From Clostridium sp. (GTDB lineage: Bacteria; Bacillota; Clostridia; Lachnospirales; Lachnospiraceae), in NCBI GenBank assembly GCA_023664325.1, contig JAMPFS010000006.1, positions 13,008 through 77,007 of the forward strand: DNA of 64,000 nt, read 5' to 3'. Position numbers and translations under genes: made by a program. Position 1 is the first letter of the stretch; each line of letters starts with the position of its first letter. The notes under the pieces are model-generated. The model saw only the letters and a program-made list of their open reading frames with translations. It ran no database searches and was not told where the DNA came from. Below are positions 45,510 through 58,423 of the stretch, piece by piece.

Positions 45510-45538
45510 TTGACATCATGACAAAAAAGTTGTATTTT
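45510..45538 (+). promoter_or_regulatory. candidate sigma-A promoter for the NusG-paralog/glycan operon
   Basis: TTGACA (45510-45515), 17-nt spacer, TGtTATTTT extended -10. Confidence 0.4.
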
Positions 45539-45568
45539 AGAAAAAGAATGTTCATAAGGGAGTCATTT

Positions 45569-46156
45569 ATGTGGTACGTCATTCAGGTTAAGACAGGGGA
45601 AGAGGAATGGATACGGGAAAAATGCAGACGGGTACTTCCAGTATCTGTATGCAGAAATATTTTTGCACCCAAATTCCAGAAAATGATGAAAGTAAAAGGG
45701 ATTTGGAGGGTGGAAGAAAAGATTTTGTTTCCGGGTTATTTGTTTCTTGAGATGCCAAAAAGGGAAGAACCGTTTGATGAATTGGAAAAGGCAGATATGC
45801 TAAAAGAGTGCTTGCAGCCGTTGGGGAGCATGGTAAAACCGGTATGCATAGGCGGTGGATTTTACCCCATACATCAGGAAGAGGAAGCCTTGTTACGAAG
45901 CCTGATGCATGCCACGGAACATAATGAGTATGTACTGGAACGGTCGAGAGGGTATGTTGTGGATGGAAAACTGGTGGTGACAAATGGCCCGCTCATTCCC
46001 TATACCGACCATGTAAAGTGGTTTGACCGCCATAAGCGGATTGGGAAATTAGAGATAGCCCTGTGGGGGGAAACGCGCCAGATTACGGTAGGGCTTGAGG
46101 TGGTGGCAAGGGTGACTGCAAAAGAGTTTCAGGAGTTGGATGGAAAAGCCGGGTGA
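45569..46156 (+). CDS. NusG-family paralog (LoaP/UpxY-like operon-specific antiterminator)
   Basis: N-terminal NGN signature MWYVIQVKTGEE; C-terminal KOW-like GKLVVTNGPLIPYTDHVKWFD; first gene of a polysaccharide locus. Confidence 0.7.
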   Translation: MWYVIQVKTGEEEWIREKCRRVLPVSVCRNIFAPKFQKMMKVKGIWRVEEKILFPGYLFLEMPKREEPFDELEKADMLKECLQPLGSMVKPVCIGGGFYPIHQEEEALLRSLMHATEHNEYVLERSRGYVVDGKLVVTNGPLIPYTDHVKWFDRHKRIGKLEIALWGETRQITVGLEVVARVTAKEFQELDGKAG

Positions 46157-47022: not shown

Positions 47023-47755
47023 GATAAGATGTTCGGTTGTGATGGCTGTTTATAATGGCGAGGCTTATATTCGCCAGCAGTTAGATTCCATTCTGGAAAA
47101 TGTGACTGTTCAGGATGAAATTGTGATATCCGATGACGGCTCCACGGATAAGACCAAAGAAATTATTCTTGCATACCAGAAAAATGGAGCAGGTATCCGG
47201 TTATTTGATGGAGAAAGAAAAGGTGTCATCGCTAATTTTGAATATGCCATTCGGCAGGCGAAGGGAAAGTATATTTTTTTGTGTGATCAGGACGATGTAT
47301 GGGAACCCAATAAAATAGAAAGGGTATTAAGATGTTTTGACGAGAATGGCTGCATGGTAGTTGTACATGATGCGGACATATGGAATGAGGAAGAAAATGT
47401 CATGGAACCATCCTTTTTTCAATATCGAAATTCCGGAGCAGGCATCTTAAAAAATATTGTTAAAAATACATATATTGGCTGCTGCATGGCGTTTTGCAGC
47501 GAGTTGCGAAACTTTATCCTTCCAATTCCCCGAAATATTGAAATGCATGATCAATGGATTGGAATTTGGGGAGATATCGTGGGAGAAAATTATTTTTTAA
47601 ATGAAATTTTGTTCCATTACCGAAGACATGGGAAAAACGTCTCAGATTTACAGCATTATCCATTTGGAAGGATGCTGAAAAACCGGATTGTACTGTGTGT
47701 GGAGCTGTTAAAGAGATGGTGGAAAAAGGTAAGGGCTGGGAGTTTATTATGTTAG
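47015..47755 (+). CDS. family-2 glycosyltransferase
   Basis: VVMAVYNGEAYI, ISDDGSTD, LCDQDDVW. Confidence 0.85.
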   Translation: MGEIRCSVVMAVYNGEAYIRQQLDSILENVTVQDEIVISDDGSTDKTKEIILAYQKNGAGIRLFDGERKGVIANFEYAIRQAKGKYIFLCDQDDVWEPNKIERVLRCFDENGCMVVVHDADIWNEEENVMEPSFFQYRNSGAGILKNIVKNTYIGCCMAFCSELRNFILPIPRNIEMHDQWIGIWGDIVGENYFLNEILFHYRRHGKNVSDLQHYPFGRMLKNRIVLCVELLKRWWKKVRAGSLLC

Positions 47756-48996
47756 GGCTGATTTTTGCATTTTTTATATTTACATTATTGGGCTATTGGC
47801 TGTACAAGTCTGTCATTTCACCAATGGTAATGTTTAACGCTATTTGGCTGGTTACATTGGCATTGTATGAAATGAAATGGAGTGAGATACAGAACGATTT
47901 AAATGAGCGATGCATATTATGTATCTGGCTGTGCCTGTTGGGGTTTAACATTGCCTGTATTGTTACGAAATTGTTTCCTAAAATTAAATCTGCAAACGGA
48001 GTTGGGCTTAGATTCAAAACACGGCGTTACATACCGCTAAATAAAAGGATCGTTTATATTAATATTTTTATTCTTATTGTATTGCTTCTTGAAGGCTGGT
48101 ATTCGGAAGGATTTCCGCTTTTTTGGATTTTATTCCGTGCAGAAAAGACATATTTTGATTTTGGGATTCCGTCTTTAAATGGCGCATTGTATGGGTTGAT
48201 TATATGTATGGGGGCATATTCCCTGTTCAAAAAAACAAAATGGAAATATTTTTACCTGGGAATCGGTCTGCTGGTGGTTTCCAGGCAGGTGATTATGTCA
48301 ATTGTCATTGAAGGAATTATTGTGTATTTGTTTGAAAATCCTGAAACATTGAAAAATGTGGATAAGAAAAAGGTCGCACTGGTTGGAATTGCGGCACTGG
48401 TCTTTTTTGGAATATATGGAAATTTCAGGACTGGAAAATCTTCTTTTAATTTTGTGTTTGAGGCGAAGCCGGCTTATGCCAATATGCCAACTGTATTTAA
48501 GTGGATTTATGCATATTTATGCTTTGCAATTAACAACTTTAACCAATTGGTGGCGATAAGTGATGGTGGTATTAATTATGGCAGTTCTATGATGAATGAA
48601 CTTTTGCCGACCGTACTGGCAGGAAAGATTGGATTTCACGATGTGTACAATCCTTATTATCTGGTGAAAATCAATTTTAATGTATCCACTTATCTGCCAT
48701 CCGTTTATCTGGATTTTGGAATGCCAGGGATTTTTATTTTTAATATGCTTATTGGCGCAATGGGAAGTATTCTTTTTCGCAGGCATGTGCAGCACAGATG
48801 TGTATGTAATCAATTGTATTATGCAGTATATATCCATAATATTTTATTGTTGTTGTTTGCTAATTTTTTCTTGAATCCGACGATTATTGTTCAATTTATT
48901 TATATTTGGCTGTTGTTTAAAAATACAGATGTAAAACAGCGACAGGAATGGAGGAGTAGGAGTGAAAACAGTTACTATCATTGTTCCGGTATATAA
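47749..48996 (+). CDS. polytopic membrane protein, probable Wzy-type repeat-unit polymerase
   Basis: More than 10 TM helices, no soluble domain, embedded among glycosyltransferases with a Wzx flippase in the locus. Confidence 0.5.
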   Translation: MLGLIFAFFIFTLLGYWLYKSVISPMVMFNAIWLVTLALYEMKWSEIQNDLNERCILCIWLCLLGFNIACIVTKLFPKIKSANGVGLRFKTRRYIPLNKRIVYINIFILIVLLLEGWYSEGFPLFWILFRAEKTYFDFGIPSLNGALYGLIICMGAYSLFKKTKWKYFYLGIGLLVVSRQVIMSIVIEGIIVYLFENPETLKNVDKKKVALVGIAALVFFGIYGNFRTGKSSFNFVFEAKPAYANMPTVFKWIYAYLCFAINNFNQLVAISDGGINYGSSMMNELLPTVLAGKIGFHDVYNPYYLVKINFNVSTYLPSVYLDFGMPGIFIFNMLIGAMGSILFRRHVQHRCVCNQLYYAVYIHNILLLLFANFFLNPTIIVQFIYIWLLFKNTDVKQRQEWRSRSENSYYHCSGI

Positions 48997-51092: not shown

Positions 51093-51956
51093 ATGAAGTT
51101 AATAAAAATAATATATTTTGCATATGGAAGTGTCTATACCAAATTAAGATTGAAAAAACGATATTTTTTATGCAATAGAGGAATGGGAGATACCATAATT
51201 TTTTTATCAAAATTAAAAGAAATTAAACAAAAAAATCCTGAAACCCCAATAAATCTGATTGTTCAGAAAAATCAGGTTCCTCTTATGAAACCTTATATGC
51301 AGTATATTGATGACTATGTGGTATTTCATAAAAACAGAATGAAAGTTTTTATGTGGCTGGCAGCGAAGGGATTATTACCCGGAAATATCCGGTTTATCCT
51401 TCCGGAAGGTGCCTATGCAATTCTTGGCTATCGTAGAATTTCCATTCAGGATTTGATTAATATCACGTTTGATCTGCCACCGGATAATCAGGACTATGAG
51501 AAGCCTTGCTTTGAATGGGATAAAGGGCGCAGAGAATATTTGCTTGATAAGTACCAGTTGAAAAAGGGAAAGTTTGTGATTTTAGGTTTGGAGGCGGTAT
51601 CTATTGAGAGAATAGCCCTGGATTATTGGGAACGGATAGCGAAAAAATATAAGGACATGGGATATCAGGTTATCAGTAACTTAAGCAGCCCGGAGCAGTC
51701 TCCGGTTCCCGGTACGATAGGATTGTTTTTGCCATTAAACGAAATATATCTGCTGGCAGAGTATGGCGGTTATTTTATAGGCTTACGAAGCGGTTTGTGT
51801 GATTTACTGGCATTTTCAGGTTGTGGGATGACCGTCATCTATCCTACGGAACAGGACAGGTATAAGTATTCTTTTGCCAATATGTGCTTTGCAAAGGAAA
51901 TCACGGAAATTTTGGTATGTGAGGTTGAGGGCTGGCTGAGAAAACTGGTGTTATGA
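51093..51956 (+). CDS. hypothetical protein with GT9-like (heptosyl/Kdo-transferase fold) pattern
   Basis: NRGMGDTIIFLSKLKEIKQKNPETPINLIV near the N-terminus and GYFIGLRSGLCDLLAF ... VIYP near the C-terminus parallel the GLGD ... NDSGxMHxAAA ... LYGP layout of GT9 enzymes. Confidence 0.4.
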   Translation: MKLIKIIYFAYGSVYTKLRLKKRYFLCNRGMGDTIIFLSKLKEIKQKNPETPINLIVQKNQVPLMKPYMQYIDDYVVFHKNRMKVFMWLAAKGLLPGNIRFILPEGAYAILGYRRISIQDLINITFDLPPDNQDYEKPCFEWDKGRREYLLDKYQLKKGKFVILGLEAVSIERIALDYWERIAKKYKDMGYQVISNLSSPEQSPVPGTIGLFLPLNEIYLLAEYGGYFIGLRSGLCDLLAFSGCGMTVIYPTEQDRYKYSFANMCFAKEITEILVCEVEGWLRKLVL

Positions 51957-51972: not shown

Positions 51973-53409
51973 ATGAAATCTTTAAAAATAAATACATTAA
52001 TGAATATGCTTAAAGTTTTGATGAGTATGCTTTTTCCACTGATTTCTTTTCCATATGTGTCGAGGATTTTAGGCCCTGCGGGAATTGGAAAAGTAGATTT
52101 TTCAGCATCAGTCGTGTCATATTTTTCCTTATTTGCTTCATTAGGTATATCAACATATGGGATTCGGGAGGGTGCAAAAGTTAGAGATCATAAAGATGAT
52201 TTGAGTACTTTTGTTCAGGAAATTTTTATTATTAATATGGTTTCAACAGTATTTTCATATGTTGTGTTCGGCTTTGCGGTTTGCAAATTAAGTGTATTGC
52301 ATGATTATTTAAAAATTTTATGCATTTGTGGATTGAATATAGGATTCACTACAATTGGGATAGAATGGTTATATGGTGCGTTGGAAGAGTATACATATAT
52401 AACAGTAAGAAGCATCTGTTTTCAACTGATTGCAATTATTTTGATGTTTTTTTTGATCAGGGATGCACAGGACTATTTACAATATGCATTTATAACGATT
52501 TTTGCAGCAGTTGGTTCTAATCTATTCAATATCATTCATTCCAGAAAGTTTGTTGTATGGAAAAAGAAACAAAAATATAATTTTAAAAGACATTTTAAGC
52601 CGATTTTAATCATATTTGGGTTAAATTTTGCATGTAGCATTTATATGAGTTTAGATAAAACAATGTTAGGTGTAATATGTGGTGATAAAGAAGTTGGATT
52701 ATATTCTGCGGCAATTAAAATAAACCGATTAGTGCTACAGTTAATCTTATCTATTGGAACTGTAATCCTTGCAAGACTTTCATATCTTTATGCCAATAGG
52801 GAACGAGAAACATTTAACAGGTTGTTCTTGAAAGTTTTCAACTATGTATTGTTCCTTACAGTTCCGTCTACGGCAGGTCTTATTTTATTAAGTAAACAAG
52901 TATTAGGTTTATTGAGTGGAAATGAATATTTGGAAGCTGATATCACATCCAAAATACTATCACTGATAATAATTATTATTGGCGCAAGTAATTTATTATC
53001 GGTTCAAATATTTATCGCAATAGGCAAGGAAAAATACTCTTTGCTTGCAAGTGGTGCAGCGGCTTTTATTAATTTTCTTAGCAATTTGTTTCTTATTCCA
53101 CAATATGGAAAAGTGGGTGCAGCAATTAGTACGGTTATGGCTGAAACAATCGCCTTAATTGTGTGTGTCTATTTTGCAAGGAAAATAATAGATTTTCATG
53201 GTGTTGTGAAAAATGTATTTGAATTTGCATTGGGAACATTTTTCTTCATCCCCGTTTTTTATGTGATAAGTGATAAGATACATAACGACTTGATTATAAT
53301 TGTTGTGATGGTGCTATTATCTGCCTGTGTATATGGATTCTTTCTTCTGATTATCAGAAATAGCGTGGCAATTGATATAAAAAATATGATAATAGGGAGG
53401 CAAGTATGA
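51973..53409 (+). CDS. Wzx-type polysaccharide flippase (MOP superfamily)
   Basis: About 14 TM helices and the N-terminal pattern typical of polysaccharide biosynthesis proteins. Confidence 0.75.
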   Translation: MKSLKINTLMNMLKVLMSMLFPLISFPYVSRILGPAGIGKVDFSASVVSYFSLFASLGISTYGIREGAKVRDHKDDLSTFVQEIFIINMVSTVFSYVVFGFAVCKLSVLHDYLKILCICGLNIGFTTIGIEWLYGALEEYTYITVRSICFQLIAIILMFFLIRDAQDYLQYAFITIFAAVGSNLFNIIHSRKFVVWKKKQKYNFKRHFKPILIIFGLNFACSIYMSLDKTMLGVICGDKEVGLYSAAIKINRLVLQLILSIGTVILARLSYLYANRERETFNRLFLKVFNYVLFLTVPSTAGLILLSKQVLGLLSGNEYLEADITSKILSLIIIIIGASNLLSVQIFIAIGKEKYSLLASGAAAFINFLSNLFLIPQYGKVGAAISTVMAETIALIVCVYFARKIIDFHGVVKNVFEFALGTFFFIPVFYVISDKIHNDLIIIVVMVLLSACVYGFFLLIIRNSVAIDIKNMIIGRQV

Positions 53410-54935
53410 ATATAGATTACATAATCGTCCAGGCTGGCGGCAAAGGCACCAGAATGGAGCATTTAACAGCCAATAAACCAAAATGTTTAGTACCGGTGAA
53501 TAATCTGCCGATGCTGTTTCATTTATTTCGGAAATACCCGGATAAGAAATTCATTGTCATTGGTGATTACAAATGTGATGTTTTGCGGGAATACCTCAAG
53601 ACATTTGCGAAGGTTTCCTATCTTTTGATAGATGCAGGAGGATGCAGCGGAACCTGTGCAGGGTTAAAACAGGCGGTGGAATATATTCCAAAGGACAGGG
53701 GATTTATGCTAATCTGGTCGGATCTGGTTCTGCCGGAGGACTTTGAACTGCCGCAGGAATTTACAGTGGAAAGTGGACAGCCGGCAGACAGGGATTATAT
53801 CGGGCTTTCCGGGGATTTTAAGTGCCGCTGGAAATACGAAAACGGCATATTTGAGGAGGAGGCATCCATAGAGAGGGGGGTGGCAGGCTTCTTTATATTC
53901 CACAATAAGGATTTGCTGGAAAGAGTTCCCGAAGAGGGTGAATTTGTCCGCTGGTTAAAAGAGCAGAACGTGAAACCAAAGGAACTGGTTTTAAGGAAGA
54001 CAAAGGAATATGGATTGATTTCTGAATATAGAAAGCTGATACAGGAAAAATGCCGACCGTTTAACCGGATGACTGTTGAGGGAGACCGTATTCGGAAAGA
54101 AGGAATTGATGAGCAGGGAAAAAAACTGGCAGTCCGGGAGAAAGCATGGTATCAGCATGTGGAATCTCTTGGGTATGACCGGATTCCGAAGATATACAGC
54201 TACGAACCTTTTGTAATGGAGAAGGTAACAGGAAAAAATGTATATGAATATGAAGAACTTTCCTATGAACAGAAAAAAGAGGTGCTGACAGGGATCATGG
54301 ATAACCTGAAGTTTCTTCATTCACTGGGAGAACAGGAAACAGATTATTTCAGTATCAAGGAAACTTATATTGATAAGACCTTTGACCGTTTAGAGAAAAT
54401 AAGGGATCTGATTCCTTTTGGCAGGGATCGGTTTATTCGGATTAACGGAAGAAATTGCAGAAATGTATTCTTTTACCAGAAGGAGCTGGAAAAGAGGCTG
54501 TATCATTACAGGGCGGATAAATTTCAGCTGATACATGGTGACTGTACTTTTTCCAATATGATGCTGAAAGAAGATTTGAGTCTGGTATTGATTGATCCAA
54601 GAGGATATTTTGGAGCCGTGGAGCTGTATGGTGATCCCGCATATGACTGGGCAAAATTATATTATTCCTTGATGGGAAATTATGACCGGTTTAACCTGAA
54701 ACAGTTCCGGCTGGATATAGAAGAATCGGAAGTGAAACTTAAGATAGAATCCAACGGATGGGAGAAGTTGGAACCGGTATTTTTTGAACAGCTAAAAGGG
54801 GAAGCAGAACCGGAGGATATCAAACTGCTGCATGCGATTATATGGCTGGCATTAACGACTTATGCATGGGAAGATTATGATTCCATTTGTGGGGCATTTT
54901 ATAACGGGCTGTACTATCTGGAAGAAGTATTGTAA
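53406..54935 (+). CDS. bifunctional sugar-phosphate nucleotidyltransferase / APH-ChoK-type kinase fusion
   Basis: N-terminal IIVQAGGKGTRMEHLTANKPKCLVPV (GxGTR...PK); C-terminal LIHGDCTFSNMML ... LIDPRG (HxDxxxxN catalytic loop, D of DFG-equivalent). Confidence 0.7.
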   Translation: MNIDYIIVQAGGKGTRMEHLTANKPKCLVPVNNLPMLFHLFRKYPDKKFIVIGDYKCDVLREYLKTFAKVSYLLIDAGGCSGTCAGLKQAVEYIPKDRGFMLIWSDLVLPEDFELPQEFTVESGQPADRDYIGLSGDFKCRWKYENGIFEEEASIERGVAGFFIFHNKDLLERVPEEGEFVRWLKEQNVKPKELVLRKTKEYGLISEYRKLIQEKCRPFNRMTVEGDRIRKEGIDEQGKKLAVREKAWYQHVESLGYDRIPKIYSYEPFVMEKVTGKNVYEYEELSYEQKKEVLTGIMDNLKFLHSLGEQETDYFSIKETYIDKTFDRLEKIRDLIPFGRDRFIRINGRNCRNVFFYQKELEKRLYHYRADKFQLIHGDCTFSNMMLKEDLSLVLIDPRGYFGAVELYGDPAYDWAKLYYSLMGNYDRFNLKQFRLDIEESEVKLKIESNGWEKLEPVFFEQLKGEAEPEDIKLLHAIIWLALTTYAWEDYDSICGAFYNGLYYLEEVL

Positions 54936-55040
54936 AGCATTGAGAGAAATTTATCAGGATAGCTGTGAAATTCCCGGCTTTACAAGTGCAAAACGGGATT
55001 TTGCGGCTGTCTAATTTATTATGAAAAGAGGAACAGAATT

Positions 55041-55634
55041 ATGATTAAATATTTTGAAGATACCGTGGGAATCATTGATGATTCACTGCACAGTATTTCG
55101 ATGGACACCTTTAACCGGCTCGTGGAGCAGACGACAGAGGCATTAAAACGGGGAAACAAAGTAGTTGTTTCCGGTCTGGGAAAGAATGTGCCGATTTGTG
55201 ACAAATTTGTAGGTTCCATGCTGTCACTGGGATTAAATGCTAATTTTTTACATACAAATTCGGCTGTACATGGAGATATGGGAATGGTACAAAGCGGAGA
55301 TCTTGTTATTATCCTGACAAAAAGCGGTTCCACCAAAGAGTCCGTTTATCTGGCAGAACTTTTAAAGCAGAGGGAGAATGTGAATTTGTGGCTGCTGACC
55401 TTTCAGCAAAAAAGTAAATTGGTAGATATGATTGGAACAGAGAAAAGCCTTGTCATAGATATGGAGCATGAAGGGGATATGTGGGATATTATGCCGAATA
55501 ATTCAACAACACTGAATTTGATCGTGTTACAGGCAGTTGTCATGGAAGTAGCAAAGAAGATGAATCTGTCGCTGGATGATTTTAAACGGAATCATCCGGG
55601 TGGAGCAATCGGGGAGAAGTTAAGTCATGTATGA
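55041..55634 (+). CDS. single-domain SIS sugar-phosphate isomerase, KdsD/KpsF-like, without CBS domains
   Basis: VVVSGLGKNVPICDKF, HTNSAVHGDMGMV, ILTKSGSTKE, FKRNHPGGAIGEKL parallel arabinose-5-phosphate isomerase motifs. Confidence 0.7.
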   Translation: MIKYFEDTVGIIDDSLHSISMDTFNRLVEQTTEALKRGNKVVVSGLGKNVPICDKFVGSMLSLGLNANFLHTNSAVHGDMGMVQSGDLVIILTKSGSTKESVYLAELLKQRENVNLWLLTFQQKSKLVDMIGTEKSLVIDMEHEGDMWDIMPNNSTTLNLIVLQAVVMEVAKKMNLSLDDFKRNHPGGAIGEKLSHV

Positions 55635-56004
55635 TCTTGTTATATCATCATTAAACCATACATGGATACTGGATTTGGATGGAACGGTTGTCCGGCATAA
55701 TGGTTATAAATTGGATGGAAAAGATACCCTGCTGCCGGGAGTCAAAGAATTTTTTGCACAGATACCGGAAGGAGACAGGATTCTTTTCTTAACATCCAGA
55801 GAAGAACAGTACAAATCTTTAACAGAGAGTTTCCTCAAAGAAAACCAGATACGTTATGACCATATCATTTATGGTGTTCCTTATGGAGAACGGATTCTGA
55901 TAAATGACAGCAAACCAAGCGGATTGGAGATGGCAAAATGTTTGTGCCTTAAAAGGGATGAAGGATTAATAGATGTAAAGATCGTAGTGGATGAGAAACT
56001 GTAA
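55627..56004 (+). CDS. small HAD-superfamily phosphatase-like protein
   Basis: Motif I ILDLDGTV, FLTSR, INDSKP; start overlaps the SIS stop. Confidence 0.6.
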   Translation: MYDLVISSLNHTWILDLDGTVVRHNGYKLDGKDTLLPGVKEFFAQIPEGDRILFLTSREEQYKSLTESFLKENQIRYDHIIYGVPYGERILINDSKPSGLEMAKCLCLKRDEGLIDVKIVVDEKL

Positions 56005-57310: not shown

Positions 57311-58423
57311 ATGTATGATTATTTAGTTGTAGGAGCAGGATTATATGGTTCTGTCTTTGCCCATGAAGCAAAGATGAAGGGGAAGTCTGTCTTAGTGATT
57401 GATAAAAGACCGAACATTGCAGGGAATGTATATACAGAAGCTATAGAGGGTATTCATGTTCACAAATATGGTGCGCATATTTTCCACACAAACAATCAAA
57501 AAGTATGGGAGTATGTAAACCAATTTGCTGTTTTCAATCGGTTTACGAACAGCCCTGTTGCAAACTATAAGGGAGAATTATACAGCCTCCCATTCAATAT
57601 GTACACATTTAATCAAATGTGGGGTGTTACGATTCCGAAAGAAGCTGCGGCAAAGATTGAAGAACAGAGAAAAGAAATCAAGGGGGAACCCCGCAATTTG
57701 GAGGAACAGGCTGTTTCGTTAGTAGGTCGTGACATCTATGAAAAACTGGTAAAAGGTTATACCGAAAAACAGTGGGGGCATGACTGCAGGGAACTCCCTG
57801 CATTTATTATTAAGAGACTGCCGGTGAGGCTTACTTTCGATAACAACTATTTTAATGCACTCTATCAGGGGATTCCCATCGGAGGCTATACGAAAATGGT
57901 GGAGAAAATGCTGGCAGGAATTGAAGTCCGCCTGAATGTGGATTATCTCGAACATAAAGAAGAATATGATGCAATGGCGGAGAAAGTGGTATATACAGGT
58001 CCAATCGATGCTTATTTTGCATATCGGTTGGGAACACTGGAATACCGTTTGGTCCGTTTTGAGACAGAAGTGCTGAATCAGCCGAATTTTCAGGGAAATG
58101 CTGCTGTAAATTATACAGACAGGGAAACCCCGTGGACAAGGATTATTGAACATAAATGGTTTGAATTTGGAAAAGATGAGGCAGGCAACGATTTACCCAA
58201 AACGATTATCAGCCGGGAGTATTCCTCTGAGTGGAAACCGGGGGATGAGCCGTATTATCCGGTAAATGATGTGAAGAATGGAATTTTGTACCGGCAGTAC
58301 AAAGAGCTTGCAGATGCAGAATCGAAAGTAATATTTGGCGGACGTTTAGGGGAATACAAATATTACGATATGGATGCAACGATTGCGGCAGCCTTAGATA
58401 TGTGCAAAATTGAGTTGGGTTAG
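57311..58423 (+). CDS. glf: UDP-galactopyranose mutase
   Basis: YDYLVVGAGLYGSVFA FAD fold, GAHIFHT, YTEKQWG, GRLGEYKYYDMD. Confidence 0.92.
   Translation: MYDYLVVGAGLYGSVFAHEAKMKGKSVLVIDKRPNIAGNVYTEAIEGIHVHKYGAHIFHTNNQKVWEYVNQFAVFNRFTNSPVANYKGELYSLPFNMYTFNQMWGVTIPKEAAAKIEEQRKEIKGEPRNLEEQAVSLVGRDIYEKLVKGYTEKQWGHDCRELPAFIIKRLPVRLTFDNNYFNALYQGIPIGGYTKMVEKMLAGIEVRLNVDYLEHKEEYDAMAEKVVYTGPIDAYFAYRLGTLEYRLVRFETEVLNQPNFQGNAAVNYTDRETPWTRIIEHKWFEFGKDEAGNDLPKTIISREYSSEWKPGDEPYYPVNDVKNGILYRQYKELADAESKVIFGGRLGEYKYYDMDATIAAALDMCKIELG

Follow-up and report, generated by a model that had tools for sequence, protein, structure and literature searches.

The locus raises the question of which sugar is activated by three consecutive plus-strand genes at positions 53406-56004 of the window, the 64,000-nucleotide stretch of a Clostridium sp. 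contig (JAMPFS010000006.1) analysed here, and what the product is used for. The first gene (53406..54935, 509 aa) encodes an AfhE-like fusion of a nucleotidyltransferase (NT) and an APH-fold kinase, the second (55041..55634, 197 aa) a single-domain SIS isomerase without CBS domains, and the third (55627..56004, 125 aa) a capless mini-HAD phosphatase. The ATG of the fusion overlaps the stop codon of the preceding Wzx gene by 4 nt, and an 8-nt overlap joins the SIS gene to the HAD gene. Upstream of the SIS gene is a 105-nt gap that contains an AGAGGA ribosome-binding site. Homologues of the three genes, 58-83% identical, are found in hundreds of species with the gene order kept, showing that these are not chance open reading frames. 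The surrounding region is a Wzx/Wzy-type surface-polysaccharide locus of gut-type Clostridia. It is headed by a LoaP-type NusG antiterminator (45518..46156, plus strand; NF033641, E 2.5e-34) and contains a Wzy-type repeat-unit polymerase (47695..48996, plus strand; TIGR04370, E 7e-17) and a Wzx-type flippase (51973..53409, plus strand; Polysacc_synt, E 1e-28). An earlier, sequence-only reading had placed the three genes at these positions and assigned them isomerase, kinase, phosphatase and nucleotidyltransferase activities. We confirm the genes, and their domain content is consistent with all four classes.

The same reading regarded the route as undescribed. A homologous three-gene set had, however, been flagged in RB69-type phages in 2018 (PMC6024577), and corresponds to gp55/gp52:53/gp51 of RB69 and gp83/82/81 of DLP3 (PMC13326640). 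According to PMC13326640, He et al. (Nat Chem Biol 2026) showed for phage HY126 that AfhE is an arabinose-5-P kinase and UDP-arabinose pyrophosphorylase that uses UTP, and that AfhF is a Mg-dependent phosphatase; together with an isomerase they yield UDP-D-arabinofuranose via arabinose-1,5-bisphosphate for DNA arabinosylation. The product decorates phage DNA as arabinosyl-5-hydroxycytosine (PMC13326640).

The Clostridium module is the predicted bacterial counterpart of this phage pathway, of which the bacterial glycan-locus version alone is uncharacterised. HY126, RB69, DLP3 and Bas46/47 have this gene trio, with its four activities, as well. Differences can nevertheless be observed. The fusion and SIS proteins are only 26-29% identical to those of the phages, and the gene order is fusion-SIS-HAD instead of SIS-fusion-HAD. 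The module is part of a Wzx/Wzy surface-glycan operon and not of a dCMP-hydroxylase/DNA-polymerase module.

In Pfam, the fusion protein matches NTP_transferase/NTP_transf_3 (aa 7-114) and APH (aa 243-425), which bears out the earlier assignment of the kinase to the APH fold and not to the GHMP type. Judged by its sequence, the protein begins with a sugar-1-phosphate nucleotidyltransferase (N-terminal part, about aa 1-215) and ends in an APH-fold kinase (C-terminal part, about aa 225-509), which is predicted to act as an arabinose-5-P 1-kinase. The protein aligns end-to-end, over aa 7-509, with the 'UDP-arabinose biosynthesis' protein of phage Bas47 (26% identity, E 1e-36), and the domain order is the same. 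It also aligns with 360 phage records, 346 of which cover at least 80% of the fusion. The motif residues G12, T15, R16, P25 and K26 of the NT domain, as well as H377-G378-D379, N384 and D397-P398-R399-G400 of the kinase domain, are invariant across the bacterial, cyanophage and T4-like sequences.

The three genes are also inherited together. Among 80 bacterial fusion loci, the SIS gene shares the locus in 75, nearly always directly downstream, and a mini-HAD gene is near the fusion in 58. NT-kinase-SIS triple fusions of 710 aa exist, followed by a 124-aa HAD, and the same trio is found in Robertmurraya and in cyanophage S-SRM01. This co-inheritance defeats the main alternative that had been raised for the fusion, a LicA/LicC-like phospho-alcohol activator producing CDP-choline or a CDP-aminoalcohol beside unrelated SIS and HAD genes. 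While the APH and choline-kinase folds are related, Choline_kinase is absent from the Pfam matches at E <= 0.01, and the match to LicC (1jyk), at E 0.012, is confined to the N-terminal 40 residues. The closest nucleotidyltransferase matches are sugar-1-P enzymes. We regard the LicA/LicC-like activity as very improbable.

The SIS protein carries PF01380. Its match to the KpsF/GutQ subfamily model (E 2e-29) spans model positions 2-153 of 268, so the protein corresponds to the SIS half only and the CBS pair is missing. GutQ (E 8e-27) and KdsD (E 2e-24) models also match, while no GmhA model is present among the family matches at E <= 0.01. The protein is thus of the arabinose-5-phosphate isomerase (API) type, as the sequence-only reading proposed, and not a GmhA ortholog within a standard heptose pathway. 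Its nearest solved relatives are the single-SIS proteins c3406 of E. coli CFT073 (5uqi) and API of Bacteroides fragilis (3etn), at E about 1e-19 and about 30-35% identity, both characterised isomerases. Like the protein studied here, they are about 200 aa long and have no CBS pair; the API of Clostridium tetani is of the single-SIS-domain type as well. The catalytic Lys, His, Glu and His are kept, with the equivalents of KdsD K59, H88, E152 and H193 found in GLGK, HGDMGM, HEGD and HPGG. The phage isomerase is likewise a single-domain API-type SIS protein, and that of Bas47 is 29% identical (E 4e-21). These similarities predict that the Clostridium enzyme converts D-ribulose-5-P and D-arabinose-5-P into each other. 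A Listeria SIS protein of API-like sequence (3fxa), reported as a glucose-6-P isomerase, also matches at E 7e-14, so the sequence type leaves the substrate unfixed.

In contrast to the genes of the other single-SIS APIs, this one belongs exclusively to a nucleotide-sugar module, and its host lacks Kdo. The isomerase could in principle supply arabinose-5-P to CMP-Kdo or a related sugar, with the fusion and HAD proteins doing something else. Such an arrangement is suggested by the flagellin-island trio of Robertmurraya, which is located near a DAHP_synth_1 (KdsA-like) gene and CTP_transf_3 and Hydrolase_3 fragments. However, neither KdsA nor KdsB was found in the whole Clostridium genome (97.7% complete), which excludes Kdo and extends to the genome the earlier remark that no KdsA-like gene is present. 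The sole DAHP_synth_1 gene encodes an AroFGH-type DAHP synthase, and the only strong cytidylyltransferase match is PseF-like and belongs to a pseudaminic-acid flagellin island. As KdsA is also missing from most loci, a role in Kdo-type synthesis is scarcely credible. The overall interpretation of the sequence-only reading holds for the activity classes, the kinase and SIS types and the absence of KdsA, but not for the novelty of the route or the LicA/LicC alternative.

The mini-HAD protein has no Pfam match above threshold; Acid_phosphat_B and HAD_PNKP appear only below it. Residues D16, D18, G19, T20, T56, R58, N93, D94 and K96 are invariant in its family, which places all four HAD motifs. 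The family profile matches the Pnkp1 phosphatase domain (E 6e-6), and the Foldseek matches are HAD phosphatases throughout, 1xpj included, although the query model is weak (pLDDT 68). The protein is 59% identical to a '3' phosphatase' adjoining the same module in cyanophage S-SRM01. The phosphatases of the phage pathway share with it a size of about 125-133 aa, the capless HAD fold and equal motif spacing. They are members of a separate HAD sub-lineage, which profile comparison hardly connects with that of the Clostridium protein: the match to the AfhF-type phosphatases of T4-like phages reaches 62% probability (E 7.5e-5), and no similarity was found by BLAST. The mini-HAD gene is missing from about 14 loci despite room in the flanks. 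The distant phosphatase match, the weak model and these gaps speak against the proposed arabinofuranose pathway. By homology, the enzyme is predicted to remove the 5-phosphate of arabinofuranose-1,5-bisphosphate.

We infer every enzymatic step of the module, as well as its sugar, nucleotide and acceptor, from these comparisons. In the reading that we consider rather probable, the three genes form a self-contained path to nucleotide-activated D-arabinofuranose that starts from D-ribulose-5-phosphate, an intermediate of pentose-phosphate metabolism. The SIS enzyme would convert ribulose-5-P to D-arabinose-5-P, which closes solely as a furanose because O5 is phosphorylated. The APH-fold domain of the fusion would then phosphorylate C1, the mini-HAD would strip the 5-phosphate from the resulting arabinofuranose-1,5-bisphosphate, and the N-terminal domain of the fusion would couple arabinofuranose-1-P to an NTP. 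With an identity of about 26% to the characterised lineage, the substrate and the nucleotide could differ from those of the phages. A nucleotide-D-arabinofuranose pathway has so far been shown in phages only; this may be its bacterial surface-glycan version.

The same product could be reached in another order, if the HAD freed D-arabinose from arabinose-5-P and the APH domain acted as an anomeric kinase. NahK and AmgK are precedents: both are APH-fold kinases that phosphorylate free sugars at the anomeric position. The module would then resemble AmgK/MurU, where an APH-fold sugar 1-kinase is likewise paired with a minimal nucleotidyltransferase, or Fkp-type salvage, where kinase and nucleotidyltransferase are also fused. 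However, AmgK/MurU is a pair of separate proteins with free MurNAc as the substrate, MurU models match only weakly (E 2e-3), and the kinase of Fkp is GHMP-type. The loci with no mini-HAD nearby would fit this order, as would the wording 'Phosphorylates Ara to Araf1p' in Table 1 of PMC13326640. The text of the same paper, in contrast, describes an AfhE/AfhF route in which arabinose-5-P is the kinase substrate and a bisphosphate the intermediate. Free D-arabinose would be mainly in the pyranose form, so this order would give up the furanose lock. We consider this order improbable.

The activated sugar, in the favoured arabinofuranose scheme, would be used by the unannotated GT-B protein encoded at 51093..51956 (plus strand). 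The protein has no Pfam or NCBIfam match. Its AlphaFold model (pLDDT 93.6) is GT9-like, with WaaC, WaaF, a Veillonella GT9 and TibC as the top PDB folds (E 1e-9, TM about 0.6). Of the 80 loci, 33 have a full-length homologue no more than 6 kb from the fusion, and 55 have a homologue of the C-terminal half there. In a set of 200 genomes of the same family, 6 of the 7 genomes with the fusion carry a homologue, against 1 of the other 193. The link to this gene, suggested by the sequence-only reading, is thus strong. The fold and the genome-by-genome co-occurrence make the protein the likely transferase for the product of the module; its conserved C-terminal half, which travels with the module, would bind the donor. 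The heptosyltransferase-like fold differs from the PimA/GT4-like arabinosyltransferases of the phages, a further point against arabinofuranose.

The fold is shared with WaaC/WaaF of the heptose pathways (GmhA; HddA and HddC or HldE; GmhB), whose logic the sequence-only reading rightly recognised in the module. A ketose-phosphate isomerase is followed by a C1 kinase that forms a bisphosphate, a HAD enzyme that removes the distal phosphate, and a nucleotidyltransferase. However, the module contains no ortholog of the four pathway enzymes: the SIS is API-type and not GmhA-type, the kinase is APH-fold and not GHMP or ribokinase-like, and the 125-aa capless HAD has no GmhB match. The transferase, too, falls short of the Pfam GT9 model. 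The module could apply this logic to a different sugar: another pentose, or a heptose or hexose made from sedoheptulose-7-P or fructose-6-P, respectively. The GT9-like partner would in that case be a true heptosyltransferase analogue. Such a substrate would agree with the ADP-heptose-using relatives of the transferase, the weak matches of the NT domain to HddC and the 6-deoxy-heptose pathway protein 5xhw, the low identity to the characterised phage enzyme, and the AfhF-like phosphatases in cyanophage clusters annotated with heptose kinase/adenylyltransferase. It is opposed by the API-type match and catalytic residues of the SIS protein, which has no GmhA match at E <= 0.01, and by the fact that the one relative of the fusion with defined biochemistry is reported to act on arabinose-5-P. 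Another sugar is unlikely, though worth considering.

The activated sugar is probably destined for a cell-surface glycan through the heptosyltransferase-like enzyme. It would join a repeat unit built by the Wzx/Wzy system, with LoaP antitermination in control. A literature search turned up no chemical report that Lachnospiraceae glycans contain D-arabinose, another point against the arabinofuranose reading. Past an Rpn-like gene, a 370-aa open reading frame (57311..58423, plus strand), named in separate notes of the sequence-only reading as a putative glf (UDP-galactopyranose mutase), possibly belongs to the same glycan programme. It is unlinked to the module elsewhere, with a homologue in 1 of the 80 loci.

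All three genes that the sequence-only reading had grouped as a sugar-activation module were recovered as ORFs on the forward strand. The first encodes a 509-aa fusion of a nucleotidyltransferase and an APH-fold kinase (53406-54935, +), and its start overlaps the end of the Wzx flippase gene by 4 nt. It is followed after 105 nt by the gene of a 197-aa SIS protein (55041-55634, +), which has a good ribosome-binding site and overlaps by 8 nt with the gene of a 125-aa mini-HAD protein (55627-56004, +). We consider it probable that this module makes NDP-D-arabinofuranose from ribulose-5-P, and that a GT9-like enzyme encoded in the same operon transfers the sugar to a Wzx/Wzy repeat unit.

The fusion comprises a nucleotidyltransferase domain (aa 7-114) and an APH phosphotransferase domain (aa 243-425), as delimited by Pfam. 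The motifs of both are invariant in an alignment of eight bacterial, cyanophage and T4-like sequences: G-x-G-T-R...P-K in the nucleotidyltransferase (G12, T15, R16, P25, K26), and H-G-D...N and D-P-R-G in the kinase (H377-G-D, N384, D397-P-R-G). A tblastn search of phage records returned 360 matches, 346 of which span 80% or more of the query. BLASTP aligns residues 7-509 with Bas47_0151, the counterpart in phage Bas47 of AfhE from phage HY126, at 26% identity (E 1e-36). Judged by these alignments, the window protein is a true full-length homologue of the phage AfhE-type proteins.

The Pfam matches of the kinase domain are APH and, weakly, RIO1, with no others; it is thus neither an HddA (GHMP) nor an HldE (ribokinase-type) kinase. 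The nucleotidyltransferase is not of the HddC type either, the fusion scoring 29.6 bits against an NCBIfam cut-off of 300. A LicC/LicA-like activation had been put forward as an alternative role for the fusion. The domain matches and the linkage of the module genes described below speak against it: Choline_kinase is absent from the Pfam matches of the fusion at E <= 0.01, and LicC (1jyk) aligns over 40 residues only (E 0.012). Together, these results remove the LicA/LicC reading.

Models of arabinose-5-phosphate isomerase (API) are the top NCBIfam matches of the SIS protein (KpsF/GutQ, E 2e-29; GutQ, 8e-27; KdsD, 2e-24), and Pfam assigns it a SIS domain. The match spans only the SIS half of the KpsF/GutQ-type models, indicating that the protein lacks the CBS pair. 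Its best solved relatives in the PDB are 5uqi and 3etn, which we take to be c3406 and the B. fragilis API, both single-SIS isomerases. The protein retains equivalents of KdsD residues K59, H88, E152 and H193, and matches the isomerase of phage Bas47 with an E value of 4e-21. No GmhA model in NCBIfam or Pfam matched it at E <= 0.01. With an isomerase of the API type in place of GmhA, the module does not belong to the standard heptose pathway (GmhA, HddA/HldE, GmhB, HddC).

An API-type isomerase might also be read as part of CMP-Kdo supply. Neither KdsA nor KdsB was found in the genome, which is 97.7% complete. Its sole DAHP_synth_1 gene encodes an AroFGH-type DAHP synthase, and the best CTP_transf_3 gene is PseF-like and has PseI/NeuB-type and PseD-like neighbours in a pseudaminic-acid flagellin island. 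Since KdsA and KdsB are missing and the SIS gene is present as a single copy in the genome, we conclude that arabinose-5-P is not made for Kdo here. The Kdo and LicA/LicC readings together retain hardly any probability.

As far as sequence comparison goes, the mini-HAD protein is the weak link in the homology to the phage pathway. It gives sub-threshold HAD matches alone in Pfam and no NCBIfam match, GmhB-type phosphatases included. All four HAD motifs are invariant across the family. Cyanophage S-SRM01 carries the same module, and its phosphatase shares 59% identity with the mini-HAD protein (36.5% for the fusion). Direct comparison with the phosphatase of the T4-like phage Bas47 revealed no BLAST similarity, and the hhalign match to T4-like phage phosphatases is weak (62% probability, E 7.5e-5, 76 columns over the first HAD motifs). 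In size and layout, the protein resembles phage AfhF. The AlphaFold model, based on 13 sequences, is mediocre (pLDDT 68, with the C-terminal third disordered), and the HAD phosphatases that it matches, 1xpj among them, are indicative only. PMC13326640 gives 1xpj as the structure entry for the phage phosphatases.

The pathway type is already known from phages, and bacterial homologues were touched on in passing in 2018 (PMC6024577). According to PMC13326640 (NAR 2026), phages RB69 and DLP3 encode an SIS isomerase, a fusion of nucleotidyltransferase and kinase, and a small HAD phosphatase, and the pathway product UDP-arabinofuranose is used in the arabinosylation of 5-hydroxycytosine in phage DNA. 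The core enzymes of the phage Afh pathway have homologues in the window module, which differs in the lineage of the phosphatase, the transferase and the probable target, a surface glycan rather than DNA. The phage genes are linked to genes for a 5-hydroxy-dCMP synthase and a DNA arabinosyltransferase. This DNA-modification context is absent at the window locus, where Pfam and NCBIfam assign no ORF to a thymidylate-synthase-like family. Instead, the operon reads LoaP, GT2, GT2, Wzy, GT2, WbsX, the unannotated 287-aa ORF of the GT9-like protein, Wzx and the three module genes (ORF calls, Pfam and NCBIfam). A scan of the operon interior for promoters and terminators found nothing exceeding background. 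The genes upstream, at 26.9-42.6 kb, are unrelated and include FakA, a two-component system and an ABC transporter.

In the proposed pathway, ribulose-5-P would be isomerized to arabinose-5-P, which a predicted 1-kinase activity would convert to arabinofuranose-1,5-bisphosphate. A predicted 5-phosphatase activity would then release arabinofuranose-1-P, and a predicted pyrophosphorylase activity would yield NDP-D-arabinofuranose. The GT9-like enzyme would subsequently move the sugar onto the Wzx/Wzy repeat unit, presumably primed by the product of one of two Bac_transf genes elsewhere in the genome. A different order of steps, running via free arabinose, seems improbable to us; PMC13326640, citing He et al. 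(Nat Chem Biol 2026), describes AfhF of HY126 as a Mg-dependent phosphatase that acts on the bisphosphate.

Relatives of the fusion form a large, well-conserved family: the protein collection contains more than 3800 matches, many of them 60-83% identical. One scan of species representatives found relatives in at least 583 genomes, from groups that include Lachnospiraceae, Oscillospiraceae, Treponema, Bacteroidales, Fibrobacteria, Mailhella, Selenomonadaceae and Robertmurraya. A single mini-HAD sequence was found on at least 1000 contigs. Among the 80 best fusion-bearing bacterial loci, 75 have the SIS gene, nearly always immediately downstream of the fusion, and 58 have the mini-HAD gene. Four of the five SIS misses are contig ends, and the fifth is a Bacteroidales MAG with fusion and HAD. 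In the Bacteroidales MAG contig JAZUFZ010000040.1 (locus L022, 6001-8019), the fusion adjoins the mini-HAD gene and no SIS gene lies within 6 kb. In this diderm, a housekeeping KdsD could supply arabinose-5-P, but the case stands alone, as the SIS gene is retained in other diderm loci.

Fourteen loci carry the fusion and the SIS gene without a mini-HAD gene within the flanks (L014, L040, L042, L043, L045, L046, L049, L052, L068, L072, L075, L078, L079 and L090). In several of them, a recurrent protein of ~160 aa and a ~430-aa protein with a GT9-like domain are encoded directly after the SIS gene. Elsewhere, nucleotidyltransferase, APH kinase and SIS domains form single chains of 710 aa that are followed by a 124-aa HAD protein (locus L002, 10001-12133; proteins P0070, P0092, P0094 and P0105). 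Thomas et al. (2018) had already linked the RB69 genes via such triple fusions from Butyrivibrio. In the window's own family, the module occurs in 7 of the 200 genera sampled, a patchy distribution that fits a variable glycan locus.

The candidate transferase is encoded at 51093-51956 (+, 287 aa). No Pfam family, Glyco_transf_9 included, and no NCBIfam family matches it at E <= 0.01; four short or mid-length homologues (from L058, L040, L025 and L052) likewise match no Pfam family at this threshold. Its AlphaFold model (pLDDT 93.6) has a GT-B fold, and the best Foldseek matches are the GT9 heptosyltransferases WaaC, WaaF, a Veillonella GT9 (3tov) and TibC (E down to 1e-9, TM ~0.6). The main rival to the arabinofuranose reading, in which the same logic serves another sugar, is kept alive by this heptosyltransferase-like partner and by the low identity to the characterised enzyme. 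We regard it as unlikely. In the public gene call, the transferase ORF has 223 aa, or 78% of the 287-aa frame. The longer version is probably correct, since confidence in the full-length model is high from the first residue onwards, the N-terminal Rossmann half included.

A word-based search for homologues of the GT9-like ORF gave 16 matches, which we attribute to the strong divergence of the family; tblastn on the loci and profile searches of genomes recovered them better. Of the 80 loci, 33 have a full-length homologue no more than 6 kb from the fusion, and 55 have a homologue of the C-terminal half at that distance, contained in proteins of 281-1065 aa. The C-terminal domain is the one that binds the nucleotide-sugar donor in GT-B enzymes. 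A conserved donor half combined with variable acceptor halves fits a shared donor. The co-occurrence of module and GT9-like gene suggested by the sequence-only reading held up in 200 genomes of the same family: a profile, built from fusion-linked members and applied to related genomes that are not independent, matches six of the seven fusion-positive genomes, always on the same contig and a few kb away. The one match in a fusion-negative genome is in a 68%-complete assembly. Other genes of the window locus rarely accompany the module in the 80 loci (WbsX in 3, the GT2 genes in 9-11, the ORF initially called glf in 1).

D-Arabinofuranose is best known from mycobacterial arabinan and counts as a hallmark of the mycobacterial cell wall, where it is made from decaprenyl-phospho-arabinose. 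We know of no established cellular pathway to nucleotide-D-arabinofuranose. Our literature search turned up no paper describing the pathway in cells, the glycan context or a GT9-like partner for it, and nothing relevant on D-arabinose in glycans of Firmicutes/Lachnospiraceae or on a bacterial UDP-D-arabinofuranose pathway. We see about an even chance that D-arabinofuranose is a component of capsules, wall polysaccharides or flagellin glycans in hundreds of anaerobes from gut, rumen and soil, that the GT9-like proteins are a new family of NDP-sugar-dependent D-arabinofuranosyltransferases, and that the supply module was acquired by phages to decorate their DNA, or passed in the opposite direction. 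These anaerobes would belong to Lachnospiraceae, Oscillospiraceae, Treponema, Bacteroidales, Selenomonadaceae and spore-forming bacilli, and their D-arabinofuranose would come from a soluble nucleotide sugar, as opposed to the lipid-linked donor of mycobacterial arabinan. The phage DNA-modification pathway would then have a large, unrecognised cellular counterpart feeding the surface glycans of common gut commensals. This would assign a function to thousands of genes annotated as 'hypothetical', 'phosphotransferase' or 'thiamine kinase-like', define a candidate new glycosyltransferase family, and make antigenic overlap with mycobacterial arabinans a testable question.

Several related loci show further variation. 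In Robertmurraya massiliosenegalensis (HE978512.1, loci L001/L012), the three genes (L001, 10001-12466) are part of a flagellin glycosylation island with flagellin and several MptE/Maf-like genes, a location that suggests that the sugar may decorate flagellin. They are followed by a gene for a 438-aa protein whose C-terminal half is a GT9-like domain. The island also holds a KdsA-like gene and fragments matching CTP_transf_3 and Hydrolase_3. The phage module closest to the bacterial one is the SIS-fusion-HAD module of Synechococcus phage S-SRM01 (L005, MW015081.1, 4414-6826). It is not located beside a dCMP hydroxylase; its neighbours are GDP-mannose dehydratase, GDP-fucose synthase, fucosyltransferase and GT2 genes, which makes it look like a glycan rather than a DNA-modification module. 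In phage Bas47 (L004, 6125-7294), a 389-aa protein with a cysteine-rich C-terminal region is encoded directly after the phosphatase and annotated as 'putative enzyme involved in UDP-arabinose biosynthesis'. Among the annotations of the genes next to the window module, none points to such a protein. AfhF-like mini-phosphatases, mis-annotated as 'phosphoheptose isomerase', are found in sugar clusters of Prochlorococcus phage P-TIM68 (L095, 3016-3354) and Synechococcus phage S-T4 (L096, 2929-3276) together with other kinases and nucleotidyltransferases, suggesting that this phosphatase lineage serves beyond the arabinose pathway.
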